Of a DNA stretch of 57,117 nt, positions 4,876 through 53,894 are shown one piece after another. The stretch is from Syntrophobacteria bacterium (GTDB lineage: Bacteria > Desulfobacterota > Syntrophobacteria > BM002), in assembly GCA_041560295.1 (NCBI GenBank), contig JBFFBS010000001.1:1-57117 (forward strand), given 5' to 3'. The notes beneath the pieces were generated by a model. It saw nothing but the letters and a program-made list of their open reading frames with translations. It did not search any database and was not told the DNA's origin. Numbering within the stretch: the stretch's first letter is position 1; each line of letters opens with the position of its first letter. Made by a program: the position numbers and the translations under genes.

Positions 4876-5355
4876 TTAGCGCCTGGCTCGGAAAAAAGCC
4901 TGGAGTAGCACCTCGCTGGCCTCCGCCAATATGCCTCCATAAGCCTGCAACCGGTGGTTCAGTAGGCCATCCATGCCAATTTGATAGACAGATTCAATAC
5001 CGCCCCCCTTGGGATCCGTGGCCCCATAAACCACCATGGCTAAGCGAGCCTGGACCATTGCTCCAACACACATGACACACGGCTCCAGAGTTACGTAGAG
5101 AACGTGGCCCGGCAGACGGTAATTAGCTACGTGCTCTGCTGCTTGCCGGAGCACAAGAATCTCGGCATGGGCTGTGGGATCATTCAGGCTTATGGGGCGG
5201 TTGTGAGCCCGCGCAATAATGTCACCGTCAGGAGTAACCAGAAGCGCCCCCACCGGCACTTCGCCCTGGCGCGCACCCTCCTCCGCTTCTGCCAGGGCCT
5301 CCTGCATGTAGGTTTCATGGGGGTCCAGTCCATTTGAAAAAAAGCCGGTTGTCAT
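4876..5355 (-). CDS. tadA: tRNA adenosine(34) deaminase TadA
   Basis: Contains the CMP/dCMP deaminase zinc motifs HAEILVLR and LEPCVMCVGA. The likely start is the ATG at 5355 (MTTGFFSNG...). The longer track ORF reaches 5454 and runs into a hairpin arm. Confidence 0.9.
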   Translation of the reverse strand: MTTGFFSNGLDPHETYMQEALAEAEEGARQGEVPVGALLVTPDGDIIARAHNRPISLNDPTAHAEILVLRQAAEHVANYRLPGHVLYVTLEPCVMCVGAMVQARLAMVVYGATDPKGGGIESVYQIGMDGLLNHRLQAYGGILAEASEVLLQAFFRARR

Positions 5356-5386
5356 ATGAACCACCTGTCTGTCTGCGCGAATCCTG

Positions 5387-5877
5387 GATGTGAGATTTGA
5401 GATGTGGGATGTGAGACTAAAAGCTTTACAACCTATGGTCCCTCTCAACGGCACCTATAAATCGATTAATCTTTCCTCCTAGTTGATCATATCTAGGCAA
5501 AAAATCCTCCGTGCCTTCCTGAAAATCAGGATGGCAATCTCGCACATATTCCATCCACTCAATTGTTTCATTACAAGACGCATGAGAGAAAACCAAAAAC
5601 CGGATAAATTCCGCTTTATATCGTCTCCGACAATAACCTTCCACAATGTTGGCCGAAATGGATTTTGACGAACGCCGTAATTGACTCCCTGTTTCGTAGA
5701 GTTCATATCTTGGTAAGAGCAACGAAAAATGGTGGCACGCAACACCAAGTTCATGTGCAATTTGATAGATCTCTAAATCTTTGTAGCCGGTGCCCCTAAT
5801 CACTTTCATAATTCCCTCCTCCTAATCTAACTAATTTACACCTCACATCCCACATCACATATCCCACATCACAAATG
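5387..5877. other. IVS-like cassette: heptamer-repeat inverted arms enclosing a four-helix-bundle gene
   Basis: Left arm ggatgtgagatttgagatgtgggatgtgagac (5387-5418); right arm cacctcacatcccacatcacatatcccacatcac (5839-5872). The arms share an exact 15-nt complementary core, gatgtgggatgtgag. They bracket ORF 5426..5809. Confidence 0.75.
5426..5809 (-). CDS. Four-helix-bundle protein (23S rRNA intervening-sequence protein family)
   Basis: 127 aa. The motif pattern YKDLEIYQIAHEL...LRRSSKSISANIVEGYCRRRYKAEFIRFL..A.AS.NET..W is characteristic of this family (it also includes DGR Avd). Confidence 0.85.
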   Translation of the reverse strand: MKVIRGTGYKDLEIYQIAHELGVACHHFSLLLPRYELYETGSQLRRSSKSISANIVEGYCRRRYKAEFIRFLVFSHASCNETIEWMEYVRDCHPDFQEGTEDFLPRYDQLGGKINRFIGAVERDHRL

Positions 5878-5885
5878 CTGTACTG

Positions 5886-6620
5886 CTAATGACCTTGATC
5901 CCGGTCCTCGAGCCCACGCTGAATCTCGTTGACAACCATGAAAGCTGCCTCTACTGGGTCTGTAGCGGCCCGAATTGGTCGCCCCACCACGATGTAATCA
6001 GCACCGTTTCTAACTGCCTGATACGGAGTAACTATTCTCCTCTGATCGTCTTTTCTGACATCTCCCCATTCCGGCCGGATGCCGGGTGTGACTACCAGTA
6101 AATCATCGCCACATTCTTCTTTCACCGCCTGTACTTCGTGACCTGAACAGACTATCCCAGCACAGCCAGCCTCTTTCGCTATCCTTGCCCTGTGCACCAC
6201 GAGTTTGACAACCTCTTCTGCCAACTCAGGCTGAATTCCCAGGGCCGCCAACTGTCTCGCATCGAGACTGGTCAGCACGGTCACAGCCAGAACCTTGGTG
6301 TGCTCAGGAACCTCAGCCGCCACAGCTTCAAGAAGGCCAGGGTCGCAATGAACCGTTATAAAGTTGGCCCGGCGCAGGCAAGACCCGCTCCGAATAACCT
6401 GCTGAACCGTTGCCGGGATATCATGAAATTTTAGATCCAGAAAGATCCCAGCATCAGTCAGATCAGCAATGGTATCCACTATTGGTGGGCCCTCAGACAC
6501 AAAAAGCTCCAAGCCAATTTTGAACACCCCTACGTGCTCACCAAGCAGCGTAACATGCTTGCGGGCTTCTTGAGCGTCAGGCACATCCAGCGGAAATATC
6601 AACCGATCTTTGGCAATCAT
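5886..6620 (-). CDS. pyrF: Orotidine 5'-phosphate decarboxylase
   Basis: 244 aa with LIFPLDV...FKIGLELF...DLKFHDIP motifs typical of PyrF. Confidence 0.93.
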   Translation of the reverse strand: MIAKDRLIFPLDVPDAQEARKHVTLLGEHVGVFKIGLELFVSEGPPIVDTIADLTDAGIFLDLKFHDIPATVQQVIRSGSCLRRANFITVHCDPGLLEAVAAEVPEHTKVLAVTVLTSLDARQLAALGIQPELAEEVVKLVVHRARIAKEAGCAGIVCSGHEVQAVKEECGDDLLVVTPGIRPEWGDVRKDDQRRIVTPYQAVRNGADYIVVGRPIRAATDPVEAAFMVVNEIQRGLEDRDQGH

Positions 6621-6979: not shown

Positions 6980-7573
6980 GTGGAGAATCTGAAGGGCATC
7001 AAAGATCGTTTGATGGAAATCATATTGGAGAAGTCTTTTCAATATTCGGAGGAGCCCATCTTCAAACTGGTCTCGGGTGGGGTGAGCAATTTCTACTTTA
7101 ACTGTAAGCCCACCATGCTCGACCCTGAGGGTAAAGAGCTCATTGGCCGCCTCATTTTCAGTACAATTCGAGATCTCGAGGTTGCTGGAATCGGCGGCCT
7201 GGAATTGGGCTCAGTCCCCATCTCAAGCGCGGTTTCTTTGATTTCTCAACTCGAGGGGCACCCCATTAAAGAATTCATTGTCCGCAAAGAGAAAAAAGAC
7301 CACGGCATTCCGGCAAAGGTGGAGGGAGAATTTGTTGCCGGGGAGAAAGTGGTGGTAGTTGATGATGTCATCACCACCGGAGGTTCCACCATCAAGGCTA
7401 TTGAGGCGGTACAGAAGCTGGGCCTCGAGGTTGCTAAAGTGGTTGTCCTGGTGGACCGGGAAGAAATGAACGGCAGGCAGAGCATTGAAAAACTCTGTCC
7501 GGAGGTGGAACCACTCATAAAACGGACGGAGGTCATGGCACTGTATAAGAAACGCATAGCGCATAGCGCATAG
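6980..7573 (+). CDS. pyrE: Orotate phosphoribosyltransferase
   Basis: 197 aa with a GTG start and the PRPP-binding loop VVVVDDVITTGGS. It is divergent from pyrF. Confidence 0.9.
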   Translation: MENLKGIKDRLMEIILEKSFQYSEEPIFKLVSGGVSNFYFNCKPTMLDPEGKELIGRLIFSTIRDLEVAGIGGLELGSVPISSAVSLISQLEGHPIKEFIVRKEKKDHGIPAKVEGEFVAGEKVVVVDDVITTGGSTIKAIEAVQKLGLEVAKVVVLVDREEMNGRQSIEKLCPEVEPLIKRTEVMALYKKRIAHSA

Positions 7574-7707
7574 CGTTGCACGAGAGAATCTATACCCTCC
7601 TGCTATCTTTAGATCAGCGATTCCATCATAAAGATACACTTATAATGAAGTTAATGGGTATCTCGCCTATGGTATTGGACCCATCGCTATGAGCTATGCG
7701 CTTTGCG
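7553..7707. repeat. Heptamer-arm inverted repeat spanning the convergent pyrE and MFS gene ends
   Basis: Left arm cgcatagcgcatagcgcatagcg (7553-7575); right arm cgctatgagctatgcgctttgcg (7685-7707). The arms overlap the last codons of both genes. Confidence 0.8.
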
Positions 7708-17427: not shown

Positions 17428-17722
17428 CCACAGAGACACGAAGAAGTGCTTCGCACTCAAATTCGAAATCCGAATTCCGAAGCACGAAATGGTTCGACCA
17501 GCTCACCACCCTGAGCCAGGTCGTAGGGCAAGTACAAAATCCGAATTCTCAAATGTTCAAAACATAACTGTCCATAGAGGTTTGTCTTGTGTTTCGGTCA
17601 TTTGGATTTTGGTAATTCGCATTTGTTTCGAAACTGGGGACCCGCCCGCAGGGTGGGGAGTCCGAAGGACCAATTTCGATATTCGGATTTCGGATTCACG
17701 CTAGCTCTGTGCCTCTGTGGTG
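17428..17722. repeat. Nested hairpin element, cgaaatccgaa family, with GC hairpin module and outer cacagag arms
   Basis: Outer arms are accacagagacacg and ctctgtgcctctgtggtg. Inner arms are aaattcgaaatccgaattccgaagcacgaaat and atttcgatattcggatttcggatt. The internal module is ctggggacccgcccgcagggtggggagtccgaagga. Confidence 0.8.
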
Positions 17723-20934: not shown

Positions 20935-23370
20935 ATGGGACCCAGGAACAGACTCTTCTTACTTGCACTGATCATCTTCTTATTGTTTGGCACCGTGCCA
21001 GCTGTGCATGCTCAACCTGATTGCACTCCTATCATTGCTGGCACCAGTATTGACAAGCCTCAACCGGTCTCCTGTGATGTTGCACCAATTTGTTACAGCA
21101 GCGAGATCACACATCCTGACAAAGTCTATTATTACTCCATTGATGGTCTTGTGGCCGGTCAAATTTTGACCATCGATGTCGATACTGATGGTCTTTCATC
21201 CTCCCTTGATTCCGTATTGGAACTTTTCGATAGCGACGGGAATTGGCTCGATGTCAGTTATGATGACCCAGCGCCAGGAGAAAAGGAATCTATTGTAGAC
21301 CCATACTTGGTATTTGCCGTCCCTGCCGACGGTGGTGGCACTTATAAATTTGGTATCAGTGCTGACGGTTCAGGAGCTCATACTGGTCCTTACACCTTTT
21401 TCCTTGAGTGTTCCGATCAGCCCACTCCTTCAGAGTTCAAATGGCCAGTTGTAGTTGGTGATTTGATAGGTGCCACTGGGTCCAACCCTGGTTCGCTTAT
21501 AAACATCGCCCCTGCGGATGCCGAAAGCTCTCTTCCTTTCCCCCTGGGTGTAGGCCCGATAGCAGATATAGAATACCAATTCATTACGCATAAGATCTTC
21601 GTTGCCATCAATGATACTTTAGGCAGCATTGTTGCCATAGATGCGGATTCAGTCGCTGCACCTCAGACCTTCAGCTTGAGTTCGGAGACAGGGGCGGAAG
21701 TTACCACGGTTGTTGCCCTCGAGGCCGCGGAGAATACGCTCTACGGAGTTCAGGCAGATCCTGCTCTTGAACAGTTCGATCTGGTCCAGGTCATTTTTGA
21801 TGATGCCGCCTTAACAGCCACGTTAACAACACCTGTTTTTTCATTTGGTACGCAGCCAGTATGGGCCCTCGCATATCATCAATCTGAAAAAATACTGTAC
21901 GGCGTTAGCGGCAGGGCTCTGCTCAAAATCAATCTGGCATTGCCCCCCTTTGGATTTGAAGAAATACCGCTAACTGGCTTATCCTCTGACATCGCTTCTA
22001 TGGACTTCAGTCATGAGGACATACTGTATGTTGTTGATGTCGAAGGAAATCTTTATGAGGTATTATCCCTCACTACCGGCGAAGTCAGGTTGATCAACCC
22101 CATAAATGCCACCGGTGGAGTTAGTAGCCTGACCTTTGGGGTTGGGGAACCCCCGAATGATGATCCAATAAAGACCATCTGTTCTTCAACATTTACCACT
22201 TCAGCATCTGCCAGCTCCGGAACTGCTGCCCCCAAACTCTCCAGATCCAAACTCAAGAGGAATCCCCTGCATCGTGCCGTCGGCCTCTTTAAGTTTCAGG
22301 GCATAGTTGGTGAAACGGTTACCCTGCACATAAAGGCAGAAGAGGAAGAGTCCGCAGAGGCTGTTGTTGAGGAATCTTCTGTGAACGAACTCGAGAATCC
22401 ATGGCTGAACTACTGGAAAGGCAAAGGGCGGGTGTTCCTGGGAATCCGAGATTCGATTCCTGGTCTTGACTTTCGGGCAAGAAAGAAAGACCAATTACCT
22501 TTCACTTTGTCGGCAACTTTGCCAGCGGACGGTACCTATTACGTCATGGTTATTCGACCCCTGCTCCGCTTCTACCAGACTGACTATTGCTTAACTTTGG
22601 AGTCAGACAATGAGAATAGTCAGGCCTGGGAAAGCTTTGATGTGGCCTGGCCTAGCGATGACTCAGGGGATGATAGCGCATCAACATCGGCTGAAGAGCC
22701 AAAAGATGTTCAGAATAATACTGAAACGCTGGCTGGCACATCTGCGGGCGACAGCCCAGTGCCAGTTGCTCTCAGCGCCACCGCTATTGCGCCCACCACT
22801 GTTCCCCCTGAGGAGCCTGTCGTTGAGACCCCCCCTGTAGAGGCAGCGCCTGTCGCTGACGGTGGTGATCCTAAAATCGTACAAAGCCTTGCCGAAACTC
22901 CTGTAGTCGAACCTGTTGCTGAAATTCCTGCAGTCGAGCCTGCTGCTGAAACTCCTGCAGTCGAGCCTGTTGCTGAAATCCCTGTACTCGAGCCTGTTGC
23001 CGAAATCCCTGTACTCGAGCCTGTTGCTGAAACTCCTGCAGTCGAACCTGTTGCTGAAACTCCTGTAGTCGAACCTGTTGCTGAAACTCCTGTAGTCGAG
23101 CTTGCTGCTGAAACTCCTGCAGTAGAGCCTGTTGCTGAAACTCCTGCAGTCGAGCCTGTTGCTGAAACTCCTGTAGTCGAAGCTGTGGCTGAAGCTCCTG
23201 TACTCGAGCCTGTTGCTGAAATCCCCGTGGTTACCGAGCCTGCTGCTGACGATGGCAGTGGAACCGAATCTGCTGATGACGGCACCAGTGATGAAGTCGG
23301 TGATGCCACACCGGTTGATGAGGAATACTCTGATGACCCTATGGAAGATTCACCCCCCATGAAGGGGTAG
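20935..23370 (+). CDS. Large secreted protein: signal peptide, two PPC-like jelly-roll segments, a repeat-containing middle region, and an acidic Pro/Glu/Val-rich 9-aa tandem-repeat tail
   Basis: The signal peptide is MGPRNRLFLLALIIFLLFGTVPAVHA-QP. The segments YYYSIDGLVAGQILTIDVDTDG...LELFDSDG and GTYYVMVIRP...YCLTLES resemble the pre-peptidase C-terminal domain. The C-terminus has 12-13 AETPAVEPV units. Confidence 0.75.
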   Translation: MGPRNRLFLLALIIFLLFGTVPAVHAQPDCTPIIAGTSIDKPQPVSCDVAPICYSSEITHPDKVYYYSIDGLVAGQILTIDVDTDGLSSSLDSVLELFDSDGNWLDVSYDDPAPGEKESIVDPYLVFAVPADGGGTYKFGISADGSGAHTGPYTFFLECSDQPTPSEFKWPVVVGDLIGATGSNPGSLINIAPADAESSLPFPLGVGPIADIEYQFITHKIFVAINDTLGSIVAIDADSVAAPQTFSLSSETGAEVTTVVALEAAENTLYGVQADPALEQFDLVQVIFDDAALTATLTTPVFSFGTQPVWALAYHQSEKILYGVSGRALLKINLALPPFGFEEIPLTGLSSDIASMDFSHEDILYVVDVEGNLYEVLSLTTGEVRLINPINATGGVSSLTFGVGEPPNDDPIKTICSSTFTTSASASSGTAAPKLSRSKLKRNPLHRAVGLFKFQGIVGETVTLHIKAEEEESAEAVVEESSVNELENPWLNYWKGKGRVFLGIRDSIPGLDFRARKKDQLPFTLSATLPADGTYYVMVIRPLLRFYQTDYCLTLESDNENSQAWESFDVAWPSDDSGDDSASTSAEEPKDVQNNTETLAGTSAGDSPVPVALSATAIAPTTVPPEEPVVETPPVEAAPVADGGDPKIVQSLAETPVVEPVAEIPAVEPAAETPAVEPVAEIPVLEPVAEIPVLEPVAETPAVEPVAETPVVEPVAETPVVELAAETPAVEPVAETPAVEPVAETPVVEAVAEAPVLEPVAEIPVVTEPAADDGSGTESADDGTSDEVGDATPVDEEYSDDPMEDSPPMKG
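22891..23235 (+). repeat. 27-bp in-frame tandem repeat array (about 12.8 units)
   Basis: The unit gctgaaactcctgcagtcgagcctgtt is repeated with point variants and encodes AE(T/I)P(A/V)(V/L)EP(V/A). Confidence 0.9.
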
Positions 23371-43715: not shown

Positions 43716-43972
43716 GTCACAAAGCAGAGTGGCTGCCATCAAATTCGAAATCCTAAATCCGAAGTACGAAACAAATCCGAAATACAAATGTTCAAATGTT
43801 CAAAACAACTTGACACGCAAAAAATGTTGTTCAATTAAATGTTTGGATCATTTGCATTTTGGAAATTTGAATTTGTTTGGATTTCTCCTTCGGAGTCCCC
43901 ACCCTTCGGGCGGGGCCCCAGTTTCGATATTCGGATTTCGGATTTATTCTGTACTGTGATTTCTGTGATAAC
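43716..43972. repeat. Nested hairpin element, cgaaatccgaa family, with the GC hairpin module in inverted orientation
   Basis: aaattcgaaatcctaaatccgaagtacgaaacaaatccgaaa...caaatgttcaaa...ctccttcggagtccccacccttcgggcggggccccagtttcgatattcggatttcggattt. The outer arms are tcacaaagcagag and ctgtactgtgatttctgtga. Confidence 0.8.
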
Positions 43973-51489: not shown

Positions 51490-52061
51490 ACTAGGCACTA
51501 AACACTAAGCACTAGGCACCAGGAAGTAAACACTAGGGACTAGGAACCGGGCAGTAAACACTAGGAACTAAGCACTAGGCACAAAAAGAAAGAAAGGGAC
51601 ACCTAATCATGGACAGAGGACACAGGGGATATCGAGATCTCAAAGTTTACAAGTTGGCCTACTCCTTAGCGATGGATATTTTTGAGGAGACTAAATCTTT
51701 TCCGCCAGAGGAAAAGTTTAGCCTCATAGATCAAATCCGCAAATCATCCCGAAGTGCTGTTACGAACATAGCAGAGGCTTGGAAAAGAAGACAGTACCCA
51801 AAAAATTTTGTGAGTAAAATTATCGATTCGGCAAGTGAAGCTGGTGAAACCGAAGTCTGGCTGGATTTCTCTAAAGATTGTGGATACCTAGAGAAATCAA
51901 AATATGATCAACTCATGAATGGATATGATGAGGTTAATCGTATGCTCTTTGGAATGGTAAGGAAACCAGACAGGTTCATATTGATACCATCAGGTAAATA
52001 GCCTTCTTACTCCATCGTATTCAGTAATCAGTGCCTAGTGTTTAGTTCCTAGTGCCTAGTT
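51490..52061. other. IVS-like cassette: cactagg heptamer inverted arms enclosing a four-helix-bundle gene
   Basis: The left arm (51490-51582) is about 13 degenerate cactagg/aacacta heptamers. The right arm (52031-52061) is gtgcctagtgtttagttcctagtgcctagtt. Together they bracket ORF 51609..52001. Confidence 0.75.
51609..52001 (+). CDS. Four-helix-bundle protein (23S rRNA intervening-sequence protein family)
   Basis: 130 aa with YRDLKVYKLAYSLAMDIF...IDQIRKSSRSAVTNIAEAWKRRQYPKNFVSK...SASEAGETEVWL. It is a paralogue of ORF 5426..5809. Confidence 0.85.
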   Translation: MDRGHRGYRDLKVYKLAYSLAMDIFEETKSFPPEEKFSLIDQIRKSSRSAVTNIAEAWKRRQYPKNFVSKIIDSASEAGETEVWLDFSKDCGYLEKSKYDQLMNGYDEVNRMLFGMVRKPDRFILIPSGK

Positions 52062-52082: not shown

Positions 52083-53894
52083 TCAACTCTCCCCCATAGT
52101 CACTCGTATCACTTCCTCAAAAGTAGTGACTCCTCGCAGCATTTTGTCAACGGCGGACTGCTGCAAGGTTAACATCCCTTCCTCAGAGGCGACTTCCTGC
52201 AATTCCGCCAATGGGGCTTTACGGTTCGTGAGCTTTCCCAGCTTTTCGCTCATGGGCAACACCTCGAATATGCCGGTACGCCCCAAGTAACCTGTGTTTC
52301 GACATTGCAGGCAGCCCTTGCCCATTTTGAGTTCCACTTCGCTTTCCGGGTTCTTGCCCAGGGGCAAAGGAGCCAGGTCAGCAGCCCGCATCCGGTATGC
52401 TTCCTCGCAATGAGGGCAAATCTTTCTCACCAACCGCTGGGCCACAACTCCCGTGAGGGTGGAAGAGATCAGGAAGGGCTGAATTCCCAGATCAATGAGC
52501 CGGGTTATGGCACTGGGTGCATCGTTGGTGTGCAAGGTGCTGAGAACGAGGTGTCCGGTGAGGGCCGACTGCACGGCATTGCTCGCCGTTTCCAGGTCTC
52601 TCATCTCACCGATCATGATGATGTCAGGGTCCTGGCGGAGCACATGACGAAGGATGTTGGCGAAGGTCAGATTGATCTGTGGCTTCACGGCGATCTGGTT
52701 GAACTGCTCATGGACCATCTCTATGGGGTCTTCAATAGTGGTAATGTTGTTCCGTTCACTAACCAGAAAGCGCAAGCTGGAATAGAGGGTAGTGGTCTTG
52801 CCACTGCCGGTGGGACCGGTAATAAGAACAATGCCGTTGGGCACCTCTATGAGCTTGCGGTATTTAATGAGGTCGGCCGATGAAAACCCCAGTCCCTCAA
52901 GGTCCTGCAAAAGAATGTCAGGATCCAGAATGCGGAGCACTGCCTTTTCACCGAACGCCACCGGCACGGTTGAAACCCGAATTTCCGCCTCATTGCCACT
53001 TCGTTCCACCTTGATACGCCCATCCTGAGGCCGTCTTTTCTCAGCAAGGTCCAGCCGAGCCAAACCCTTGATCCTCGAAAGAATTGCCGGATGCACACTC
53101 TTGGGTATCCGGTAAATGGTATGCAGGAGCCCGTCGATGCGAAGCCTCACAATGGTTTGGTCCCGCTTGGGCTCAATGTGTACATCGCTTGCACGCTGAT
53201 CAAAACCGTAGGTGAACAGGTGGTCCACCGCATTGGTTATATGTTGATCGCTTGAGGAGATCTCGTCGGCCGATTGCAGCCGGGTGAACTGTTCCAGGTT
53301 TCCCAGATCCACCAAGGGCCGGCTTATCTGATGGTCAGCGGCGACAATGGAACTCTTGAATCCGTAGAACTCCGAGATGGTCTTGATAATGTCACTCTTG
53401 GTGCTGATCAGCGCTTCTACCCGTTTCTGGGTGACCCGCTCGATATCCTCCAAAACTTGGCGATTGAAGGGATTATAGACCACCACGGTAATGGTCTCCA
53501 GGGAACTTTCCACCGGGAGCACCATGTGTTTCAGGGCAAAGCTTTTCGGAATGGTTTGGGTTACCAACTCCAAATCCAGCTCCAATGGATCAATTTTCTT
53601 GAAAGCCATGCCCAGTTCAGCTGCCACTGCCCTCATAATGGCCTCTTCATCCAGACGGCCATCCGCACCCGCACCCGGCACCAGTTCCATGGAGGCCAGA
53701 ACATCCACCGGGGTAATCTCAGCATCGCAGCTCTGGGCGGAGAATCCCCCTCTTTTGACCTTGCAAATCTGAGCCAGTTTTTCCTGCTGCACAGGGGCTT
53801 TCTTATAGATTATCTTCTCCTGGTGTGGGCTGATCAGACCACACCTGCGGAGTATCCCAACCAAATATTCCAGATCCAACTGGGTTGAACTCAT
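52083..53894 (-). CDS. PilB/GspE-family type IV filament assembly ATPase
   Basis: 603 aa with Walker A GPTGSGKTTT, Walker B IIMIGEMRD, LSTLHTNDA, and tetracysteine CPHC...CLQC. Confidence 0.92.
   Translation of the reverse strand: MSSTQLDLEYLVGILRRCGLISPHQEKIIYKKAPVQQEKLAQICKVKRGGFSAQSCDAEITPVDVLASMELVPGAGADGRLDEEAIMRAVAAELGMAFKKIDPLELDLELVTQTIPKSFALKHMVLPVESSLETITVVVYNPFNRQVLEDIERVTQKRVEALISTKSDIIKTISEFYGFKSSIVAADHQISRPLVDLGNLEQFTRLQSADEISSSDQHITNAVDHLFTYGFDQRASDVHIEPKRDQTIVRLRIDGLLHTIYRIPKSVHPAILSRIKGLARLDLAEKRRPQDGRIKVERSGNEAEIRVSTVPVAFGEKAVLRILDPDILLQDLEGLGFSSADLIKYRKLIEVPNGIVLITGPTGSGKTTTLYSSLRFLVSERNNITTIEDPIEMVHEQFNQIAVKPQINLTFANILRHVLRQDPDIIMIGEMRDLETASNAVQSALTGHLVLSTLHTNDAPSAITRLIDLGIQPFLISSTLTGVVAQRLVRKICPHCEEAYRMRAADLAPLPLGKNPESEVELKMGKGCLQCRNTGYLGRTGIFEVLPMSEKLGKLTNRKAPLAELQEVASEEGMLTLQQSAVDKMLRGVTTFEEVIRVTMGES

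Follow-up and report, generated by a model that had tools for sequence, protein, structure and literature searches.

ORF-bearing intervening sequences (IVSs) of rRNA genes have been an unexplained curiosity since the early 1990s. The 57,117-nt stretch of DNA analysed here (the window: positions 1 to 57,117 of contig JBFFBS010000001.1, assembly GCA_041560295.1, from a Syntrophobacteria bacterium) raises the question whether an element of this kind can also exist outside rRNA, in the spacer between two protein-coding genes, pyrF and tadA. The open reading frame (ORF) in that spacer encodes a four-helix-bundle (4HB) protein and is enclosed by complementary arrays of heptamers. An earlier note, made from the letters alone, had taken the locus for a free-standing IVS-like cassette hinting at mobility or RNA-level processing, a reading that the comparative evidence supports. 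In our best account the cassette is a promoterless 4HB gene with its own ribosome-binding site, lying in the loop of a hairpin whose stem, about 30 bp long, is made of inverted heptamer arrays; it would be transcribed by read-through, the duplex formed by its arms would be cut by RNase III, and at the DNA level the cassette is gained, replaced and lost by decay. We assign this account as a whole a probability of roughly 0.6, cleavage and the role of the protein being the parts that we infer.

Anatomy of the cassette and the odds of chance bracketing

The cassette is read from the minus strand of positions 5378-5882, in the order pyrF stop codon, 5' heptamer array, linker with the ribosome-binding site, 127-codon ORF, 3' array, tadA (Table 1). 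The earlier note had assigned the ORF at 5426..5809 to the IVS-protein family and named the neighbours tadA and pyrF. Profile searches agree on the first point, the protein scoring 79.5 bits against PF05635 (cut-off 33.8) and 81.9 bits against TIGR02436 (cut-off 24), and on the second the neighbours were confirmed as a deaminase and orotidine monophosphate (OMP) decarboxylase. The conserved family residues Q42, R44, S49, N53, E56 and E80 are all present. The complementary arms described in the note were recovered by an inverted-repeat search: the segments 5387-5415 and 5842-5870 are 29 nt long, 90% complementary and separated by 426 nt, and there is a second pairing register, 5395-5416 with 5855-5876. 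Read directly, 26 of the 29 positions are complementary, with an exact 15-nt core, GATGTGGGATGTGAG. The program TRF reported the arms as 4.3 copies of GATGTGA and 3.9 copies of CACATCC; on the gene strand the 5' arm (5842..5876) is G-rich and contains no C. The arm stem closes the whole ORF in both the minimum-free-energy and the centroid RNA fold (z = -2.9, 0 of 100 shuffles as stable).

The source genome (G000 in our numbering; 3.9 Mb, 403 contigs, 50% G+C) contains about 2300 period-7 tandem arrays in 71 unit clusters and most of its intergenic spacers carry one, therefore bracketing by chance was a real concern. Complementary array pairs in this genome are mostly hairpins with short loops of 10-200 nt. 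We scored arms by locally aligning the upstream flank with the reverse-complemented downstream flank. By this measure the window cassette scored 46, while 30 shuffles did not exceed 24, thus the complementarity is above chance. The seven PF05635 genes of the source genome scored between 46 and 57, whereas 158 control ORFs (random, non-overlapped, 100-170 aa, same genome) had a median of 18 and a maximum of 34, so that seven of seven PF05635 genes and none of the 158 controls are bracketed (Fisher p = 1.7e-12). The seven paralogues are, except for one recent pair, only 16-30% identical to each other, and their arm units differ: GATGTGR, ACTAGGC, CGCATAG (twice), GGGTACA/CCTTGTA, the 9-mer CGTTCAAAT and the 8-mer TGGAGTAN. 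Complementarity is preserved inside each cassette while the sequence varies between cassettes.

Table 1. Features of the cassette and its neighbours, in the order of the gene strand
Feature	Position in the window	Strand	Remark
pyrF, upstream host gene (OMP decarboxylase)	5886..6620	-	stop codon 9 nt from the 5' arm
5' arm on the gene strand	5842..5876	-	degenerate tandem heptamers GTGATGT GGGATAT GTGATGT GGGATGT GAG
Shine-Dalgarno-like GGAGGAGGG	5814..5822	-	4 nt upstream of the ATG at 5809; read from the sequence
4HB gene, 127 aa, PF05635 / TIGR02436	5426..5809	-	ATG at 5809, end at 5426
Motif AGGGGCACC	5789..5797	-	falls within codons 5-7 of the window gene
3' arm, CTCACATCCCACATCTCAAATCTCACATCC on the gene strand	5387..5416	-	tandem heptamers complementary to the 5' arm; starts 10 nt past the stop codon
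tadA, downstream host gene (tRNA-adenosine-deaminase-type cytidine deaminase)	4876..5358	-	probable ATG at 5358, 29 nt past the 3' arm

The window holds a second cassette on the plus strand, at 51490-52060, in which the 4HB ORF occupies 51609-52001 and is preceded by the leader AAAGGGACACC. Its 5' array (51490-51582) is of the ACTAGGC type and consists of 13 units with a 28-nt super-period, the complementary array lies at 52030-52060, and the downstream neighbour (52083-53894) is on the opposite strand. Among the other cassettes of the genome, the 4HB gene at C75:508-939 (L007), which has the octamer arms TGGAGTAN, contains an in-frame TAG at the invariant Gln codon of the family and is probably a fresh pseudogene; the 4HB genes of several relatives also have single in-frame stops. 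The locus with the 9-mer CGTTCAAAT (C314:400-1060, L001) comprises three arrays, arranged as A, short loop, A', gene and A' again, so its 5' array could pair with either A' partner, and the upstream cassette of C198 has the same three-array layout. A tandem repeat of another kind, with a 27-nt unit in 12.3 copies of 87% identity (TTGCTGAAACTCCTGTAGTCGAGCCTG), occurs at 22889-23221 of the window and probably encodes a 9-residue protein repeat.

The same anatomy in relatives, in other phyla and in 23S rRNA

PF05635 genes were found in 31 of 41 related genomes, in 1-14 copies each, and between close relatives the copy number ranges from 0 to 14. When one locus per genome was inspected in 29 relatives, the same hairpin-enclosed anatomy was seen, and at about 34 of the 36 loci of the class, the source genome's own included, the arm score was above that of every shuffle. 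To look beyond the class we used a degenerate-pattern scan with one genome per species, aligned on one PF05635 subfamily, which yielded 80 loci; its best match was in a metagenome-assembled genome of Desulfobacterales, a hint at the affiliation of the source organism. Complementary tandem arrays, mostly of period 7 and some of period 8 or 9, were present in the flanks of 67 of 79 loci from about 20 phyla, as called with a permissive score. The sample covered Nitrospirota, Acidobacteriota, Bacillota, Bacteroidota, Lentisphaerota, Planctomycetota, Verrucomicrobiota, Vibrionaceae, Chloroflexota, Deinococcota, Cyanobacteria, Omnitrophota and the Candidate Phyla Radiation. Because this sample represents one subfamily and the score was permissive, we claim the bracketing rule for this subfamily and for the class, not for every PF05635 member. 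In the class and in the cross-phylum loci the gap between arm and ORF is typically 0-40 nt at the start codon and 0-60 nt at the stop codon.

A leader of the form AAAGGGGGCACC(N0-6)ATG precedes 22 of 34 4HB genes of the class (loci L001-L033 and the window) but only about 1 of 79 in other groups, and genome-wide there is no enrichment of the motif; we therefore regard it as lineage-specific. For the same reason GGGGCACC was rejected as a universal cassette signal. In the window gene, the motif AGGGGCACC at 5789..5797 looks like a relic of the usual leader after an upstream shift of the start codon. In the source genome AAAGGGGGCACC also stands before a PF13366 (GxxExxY) gene (C205), a RadC-like gene (C70) and an unknown gene (C69). 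The PF13366 gene was considered as a second cargo and dismissed: it is there in one copy with the same leader but has weak arms only.

The source assembly has no 23S rRNA gene, and an Rfam scan of the window found no rRNA. A search of the class with the window protein returned orthologues, then three free-standing copies at 50-55% identity, and then the genes of IVSs in helix 45 of 23S rRNA at 37-42%. These IVS genes come from at least six related genomes: G068 (several operons), G080, G096, G106, G115 and G024. At L034, in G024, which belongs to the same class, the 4HB gene lies within a 23S rRNA gene (Rfam LSU, 2534 bits) in the arrangement ...ACCGAAGCCGCGGAT, CCAAGGAACAAGGGTCAAGGAGCAAGGGACAAGGG, ATG and 4HB ORF, CCCTTGAACCTTGATACTTGATCCTTGTTCCTTGG, ATGGTAGGGGAGC..., which is the classical helix-45 site; the IVS loci L152, L153, L155, L156 and L157, with proteins 37-41% identical to that of the window, are situated between ACCGAAGC.GCGG and GGTAGGGGAGC. 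The arm units of the IVSs (GATGTCG, GGTGTCG, GATATCA, GAGGTCG) resemble those of the window cassette (GATGTGG, GATATGT, GATGTGA), and two of the three free-standing relatives have GGATGCA and GGATGCT. A 23S rRNA IVS with related arms and ORF, which the earlier note had proposed to look for in this genome, thus exists in relatives of the class, and the claim that the architecture mimics an IVS gains support from the fact that, besides the three free-standing copies, the nearest non-orthologous homologues are found in helix-45 IVSs with heptamer arms. A DNA search found the helix-45 region in four relatives, two of them without an IVS (G013, G029), one with an ORF-less IVS (G004) and one with a 4HB IVS.

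Since it lies between pyrF and tadA and not in rRNA, the window cassette is not an IVS in the strict sense. Comparison of the sequences supports reading it as the element of ORF-bearing 23S IVSs in free-standing form. Two further observations concern the rRNA loci. The ORF-less IVS of G004 (C28, L058) is about 150 nt long and has a perfect, non-heptameric 18-bp stem (CGCTTGCTTCACTAAGCC...GGCTTAGTGAAGCAAGCG). In G024 an 84%-identical copy of the IVS arm heptamer CAAGGRA is found at C79:1842-1879, with the 23S match beginning approximately 270 nt downstream of it, and may be part of the pre-23S processing region.

Turnover, expression and rival explanations

Comparison of orthologous tadA-pyrF spacers, also suggested in the earlier note, was possible in the 11 genomes of the genus in which the synteny is kept, and it revealed presence, decay and absence of the cassette. 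It is intact in G000 and in G014, whose proteins are 98% identical; G014 has two uncompensated substitutions in the 3' arm. G010 has kept both arms and has lost the 5' two-thirds of the ORF by a deletion with its junction at a TAAA microhomology. This allele shows how a cassette can turn directly into a gene-less hairpin. In G004, whose pyrF is 92% identical and as close as that of G014, the spacer contains a gene-less short-loop hairpin with GATGTCG/GTTGTCN units, and seven more distant members of the genus have no cassette but short, unrelated spacers, one with an ACTAGGC hairpin. The cassette would have entered this spacer in the ancestor from which a subclade of the genus descends. Directly downstream of pyrF there is also another PF05635 gene in a different family of the class (G029:C51:95946-97076), reflecting either an independent use of the junction or an old association.

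A second site with turnover lies next to lexA. In the source genome lexA stands between two near-identical 4HB cassettes on its own strand, both with CGCATAG arms (C198:396-1915; L004, L005), followed by an error-prone-polymerase-like gene (the protein starts MLRNILHLDIRNFCIALERQ...). Downstream of lexA, G005 has a cassette with GGTCATG arms in place of the CGCATAG cassette of G000; the two 4HB proteins are 31% identical, whereas the flanking proteins are 97.5% and 95% identical. The homology between the two genomes ends at the lexA stop codon and returns at the last CGCTTTG unit of the old arm, and there is no target-site duplication at the replaced site. G006 has a third cassette here (AAACGGT arms) and G002 an empty 160-nt spacer. 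Because of the alleles at the lexA and pyrF sites we conclude that arms and gene move, or are replaced, as one piece.

That arms and ORF co-vary is also seen at the level of the units: each cassette has its private unit, and unit similarity tracks protein identity. The units match within one mismatch in 50% of the pairs at 70-90% protein identity, in 13% at 55-70% and in 2-3% below 45% (permutation p = 0.002). Such a correlation is expected from co-inheritance; in view of the IVS group, where units are related at about 40% identity, it is also compatible with a protein that recognises the unit. In our account the 4HB protein would most likely bind nucleic acid related to its own arms.

The exchange of whole cassettes with their arms between near-identical flanks at lexA, the presence/absence variation at pyrF-tadA and the patchy occurrence over about 20 phyla could also be explained by an autonomous selfish mobile element, whose 4HB protein recognises its own arrays and directs excision, insertion or array synthesis, possibly with host enzymes, RNA processing being secondary. 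The rise of unit similarity with protein identity and the relatedness of the units in the window and IVS copies at only about 40% protein identity would fit such an element, and the homologue Avd binds nucleic acid and a polymerase in diversity-generating retroelements (DGRs). We nevertheless consider it unlikely. The protein is a 127-aa helical bundle without a nuclease or recombinase motif, the 4HB gene is the only ORF, and the usual marks of a transposon or insertion sequence (own transposase or recombinase, target-site duplication, multiple identical copies) are absent, nearly every cassette being single-copy with private arms. Moreover, the genome has no reverse transcriptase, arrays of the same unit are abundant in members of the genus that lack the cognate protein, and the unit-protein correlation decays fast (13% at 55-70% identity) and is predicted by plain co-inheritance as well. 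A special form of this idea, a DGR-like partner providing retro-mobility, is ruled out, as a search with RVT_1 found no match in the whole assembly (93.6% complete). In the account that we prefer, insertion may occur by host recombination at heptamer arrays.

GATRTGR arrays turned up in each of the 18 genomes of the genus (8-259 hits), even where the protein has no close homologue, with the highest counts in both carriers of the intact cassette; a strict model of one protein serving one unit in trans is therefore unsupported. Of the three unit families richest in arrays, two lack a 4HB partner in the assembly. Gene-less heptamer hairpins can be seen in the window at 2000-2170, 7553-7707, 17459-17696 and 43741-43945. 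The suggestion of the earlier note that such hairpins could be empty relatives of the cassette finds partial support in the G010 arms around a truncated ORF and in a shared chirality. Of 62 cassettes, 50 have a G-rich first arm (811 G vs 382 C), and among the gene-less short-loop hairpins of the source genome 184 of 235 have a G-rich 5' arm, whichever strand is read (p = 8e-19); the G-bias of the arms of an inverted repeat is identical on both strands. The shared chirality supports a common origin of cassettes and gene-less hairpins. After loss of the ORF the arms would persist, as one source of these hairpins.

The abundance of arrays invites the objection that the arms are not specific to the cassette: the lineage would fill its spacers with heptamer hairpins for some unrelated reason, and small accessory genes such as those of the 4HB family would merely land in their loops or stay there. 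The roughly 2300 arrays in 3.9 Mb belong to few unit families, and the units of the cassettes are among the most frequent, ranking 1, 4 and 5, with the window unit in the rank-4 family (CGCATAG 402 arrays, AAATCCG 305, ACACCTG 261, GATGTGA 176, ACTAGGC 126). Gene-less hairpins occupy the same spacer in G004 and G011, housekeeping genes are sometimes enclosed too, and the G-rich bias of the 5' arm is common to both kinds of hairpins. All this would be expected if the objection were right, yet we hold it to be very unlikely, because it does not account for the seven-to-none difference between 4HB genes and controls, for the bracket in phyla sampled at random and in helix 45 of 23S rRNA, for the switching of arms together with the gene at lexA, or for arms that hug the ORF as closely as described above.

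As to expression, the orientation of the ORF is not random, symmetric as the arms are: the upstream neighbour is on the same strand as the 4HB ORF at 95 of 107 loci (89%; baseline 72%, p = 2e-5), while the downstream neighbour is at baseline. Neither a sigma-70-like promoter nor a terminator was found in either spacer of the window cassette. These features fit a promoterless gene expressed by read-through from the host transcript, as in rRNA. The window cassette would be transcribed from pyrF, its arms would pair in the RNA into a long duplex cut by RNase III, as shown by experiment for rRNA IVSs, and the cut would free the 4HB mRNA and split the host cistrons apart, making the insert tolerable in operons and in rRNA. 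The gene of RNase III (rnc) is present in the source genome. The locus occurs in roughly 20 sediment metagenomes. Metatranscriptome runs yielded contigs that include the ORF and extend across both arm junctions, therefore the locus is transcribed; the assembled contigs carry no information on transcript ends.

It must be noted that several results weigh against this account. The contigs that cross both arms mean that uncut RNA exists, unless they stem from contaminating DNA. On the sense strand of 36 arm pairs, G-U mismatches are not in excess of A-C mismatches (85 vs 81, plus 117 transversions). Together with the uncompensated substitutions in the arm of G014 this gives no support for selection on RNA pairing, although the mismatch count does not refute it either. 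No recombinase, target-site duplication or multi-copy burst was seen for the cassette. Finally, with arrays of the window cassette's unit in all 18 genomes of the genus and about 2300 arrays in the source genome, the arms could have been recruited from an existing pool.

The 4HB protein might instead be a domesticated host factor, a regulator or an RNA/DNA-binding protein linked for example to stress or the SOS response, with the hairpin serving translational or stability control and the turnover reflecting ordinary allelic recombination; intact ORFs, family residues conserved across very divergent paralogues, the 98% identity of the G000 and G014 copies, the conserved AAAGGGGGCACC-ATG leader in 22 of 34 cassettes of the class and the two copies flanking lexA beside an error-prone-polymerase-like gene would suit such a role, but it is very unlikely in view of the common pseudogenes and truncations (C75 with TAG at the conserved Gln, G010, several internal stops), a copy number of 0-14 among close relatives, the unrelated insertion sites (rRNA, pyrF, lexA, tRNA-adjacent) and the report that the Coxiella IVS protein is not synthesised in vivo (PMC4990558).

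Comparison with known systems

PF05635 is a very large family, and to our knowledge a function for it has been established in DGRs only. The locus ties this 4HB/Avd-like family together with the IVSs and with intergenic heptamer repeats. Together with its relatives it shows that an rRNA IVS is one of the places where a general hairpin cassette lands: the cassette is also found in the spacers of ordinary genes, undergoes exchange among close relatives and can decay into gene-less heptamer hairpins. The design of a hairpin with an ORF in its loop could also serve as a natural operon insulator. The question can be tested with simple constructs addressing RNase III dependence, binding of the protein to the arms and the effect on flanking cistrons. 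In the searchable literature we found neither a free-standing, operon-embedded version nor a general rule; only the rRNA version has been described there.

The closest known system is the ORF-bearing 23S IVS itself. The IVS of Coxiella burnetii contains the S23p ORF and a 28-bp inverted-repeat stem that is cut by RNase III in vitro, and its tandem GACAGAT heptamers differ in number between strains (PMC4990558). The idea that the IVS was once mobile is credited in the same paper to Ralph and McClelland. The window cassette has in common with the IVSs of Coxiella and of Leptospira (the latter as cited in PMC4990558) the protein family, the position of the ORF in the loop of an inverted-repeat stem of about 28-33 bp with tandem heptamers, and the co-orientation of the ORF with the host transcript. 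It differs in lying between two protein-coding genes, where it separates cistrons rather than rRNA fragments, and RNase III excision is proven for the rRNA copies only.

At the level of the protein, an AlphaFold model of the window protein (monomer, 20 homologues as input) consists of four long helices (predicted local distance difference test score, pLDDT, 95.7). The best Foldseek matches were the closest solved structures, XCC0516 (PDB 2GSC) and BT_0352 (2RLD) of the structural-genomics 'S23 ribosomal protein family', with a TM score of 0.83-0.93 for XCC0516 and an rmsd of 1.3-1.5 A for 2GSC/2RLD. A profile search of the PDB from these proteins likewise gave a match of the 2GSC/2RLD type at E = 1.9e-30. 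Both entries contain five chains, whereas the window protein was modelled as a monomer. We know of no function for either XCC0516 or BT_0352.

The next Foldseek match was Avd, the accessory protein of DGRs (PDB 4DWL, 8UBE), with TM scores of 0.71/0.83 and a probability of 1.00 for 4DWL. Avd has the same four-helix-bundle fold but only about 11% sequence identity to the window protein, and it was not found in the PDB by sequence with the profile built from the 4HB proteins of this study. PF05635 is the Pfam family most common beside DGR reverse transcriptases (PMC10053308). The reverse transcriptase, template repeat and variable repeat of DGRs all lack a counterpart at the window cassette, and because the genome has no reverse transcriptase we do not regard the cassette as a DGR component.

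The arrays of the source genome, 7-nt tandem units of many families in intergenic DNA, are of the type of the short tandemly repeated repetitive (STRR) sequences and other tandem heptamers of cyanobacteria and large sulfur bacteria (PMC4679880), which are likewise intergenic with many unit families per genome; related units are common to distant phyla. The STRR literature describes mostly direct repeats upstream of genes, whereas the cassettes consist of inverted pairs around one gene family. PMC4679880 names no associated gene family and does not mention S23, IVS or four-helix proteins. In the widest interpretation, PF05635 proteins and inverted heptamer arrays would form one two-part bacterial system, in which each subfamily reads its own unit and cassettes colonise any transcribed DNA, be it rRNA helices or operon junctions; decay products and activity in trans would seed STRR-type hairpins, and the chirality would be a footprint of array synthesis, in which, for example, both 3' ends of a DNA break are extended on a template. 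We offer this as a speculation that is quite unlikely to hold as a whole.

It is also instructive to compare the cassettes with REP/REPIN-RAYT (repetitive extragenic palindromes and their associated tyrosine transposases) and other systems that combine a nuclease with a repeat. These too are short, palindromic, multi-copy intergenic elements tied to one protein family. They differ from the cassettes described here, in which the 4HB protein has no nuclease or transposase fold, each gene has its private arms instead of one consensus shared by the whole genome, and the gene is located inside the hairpin.

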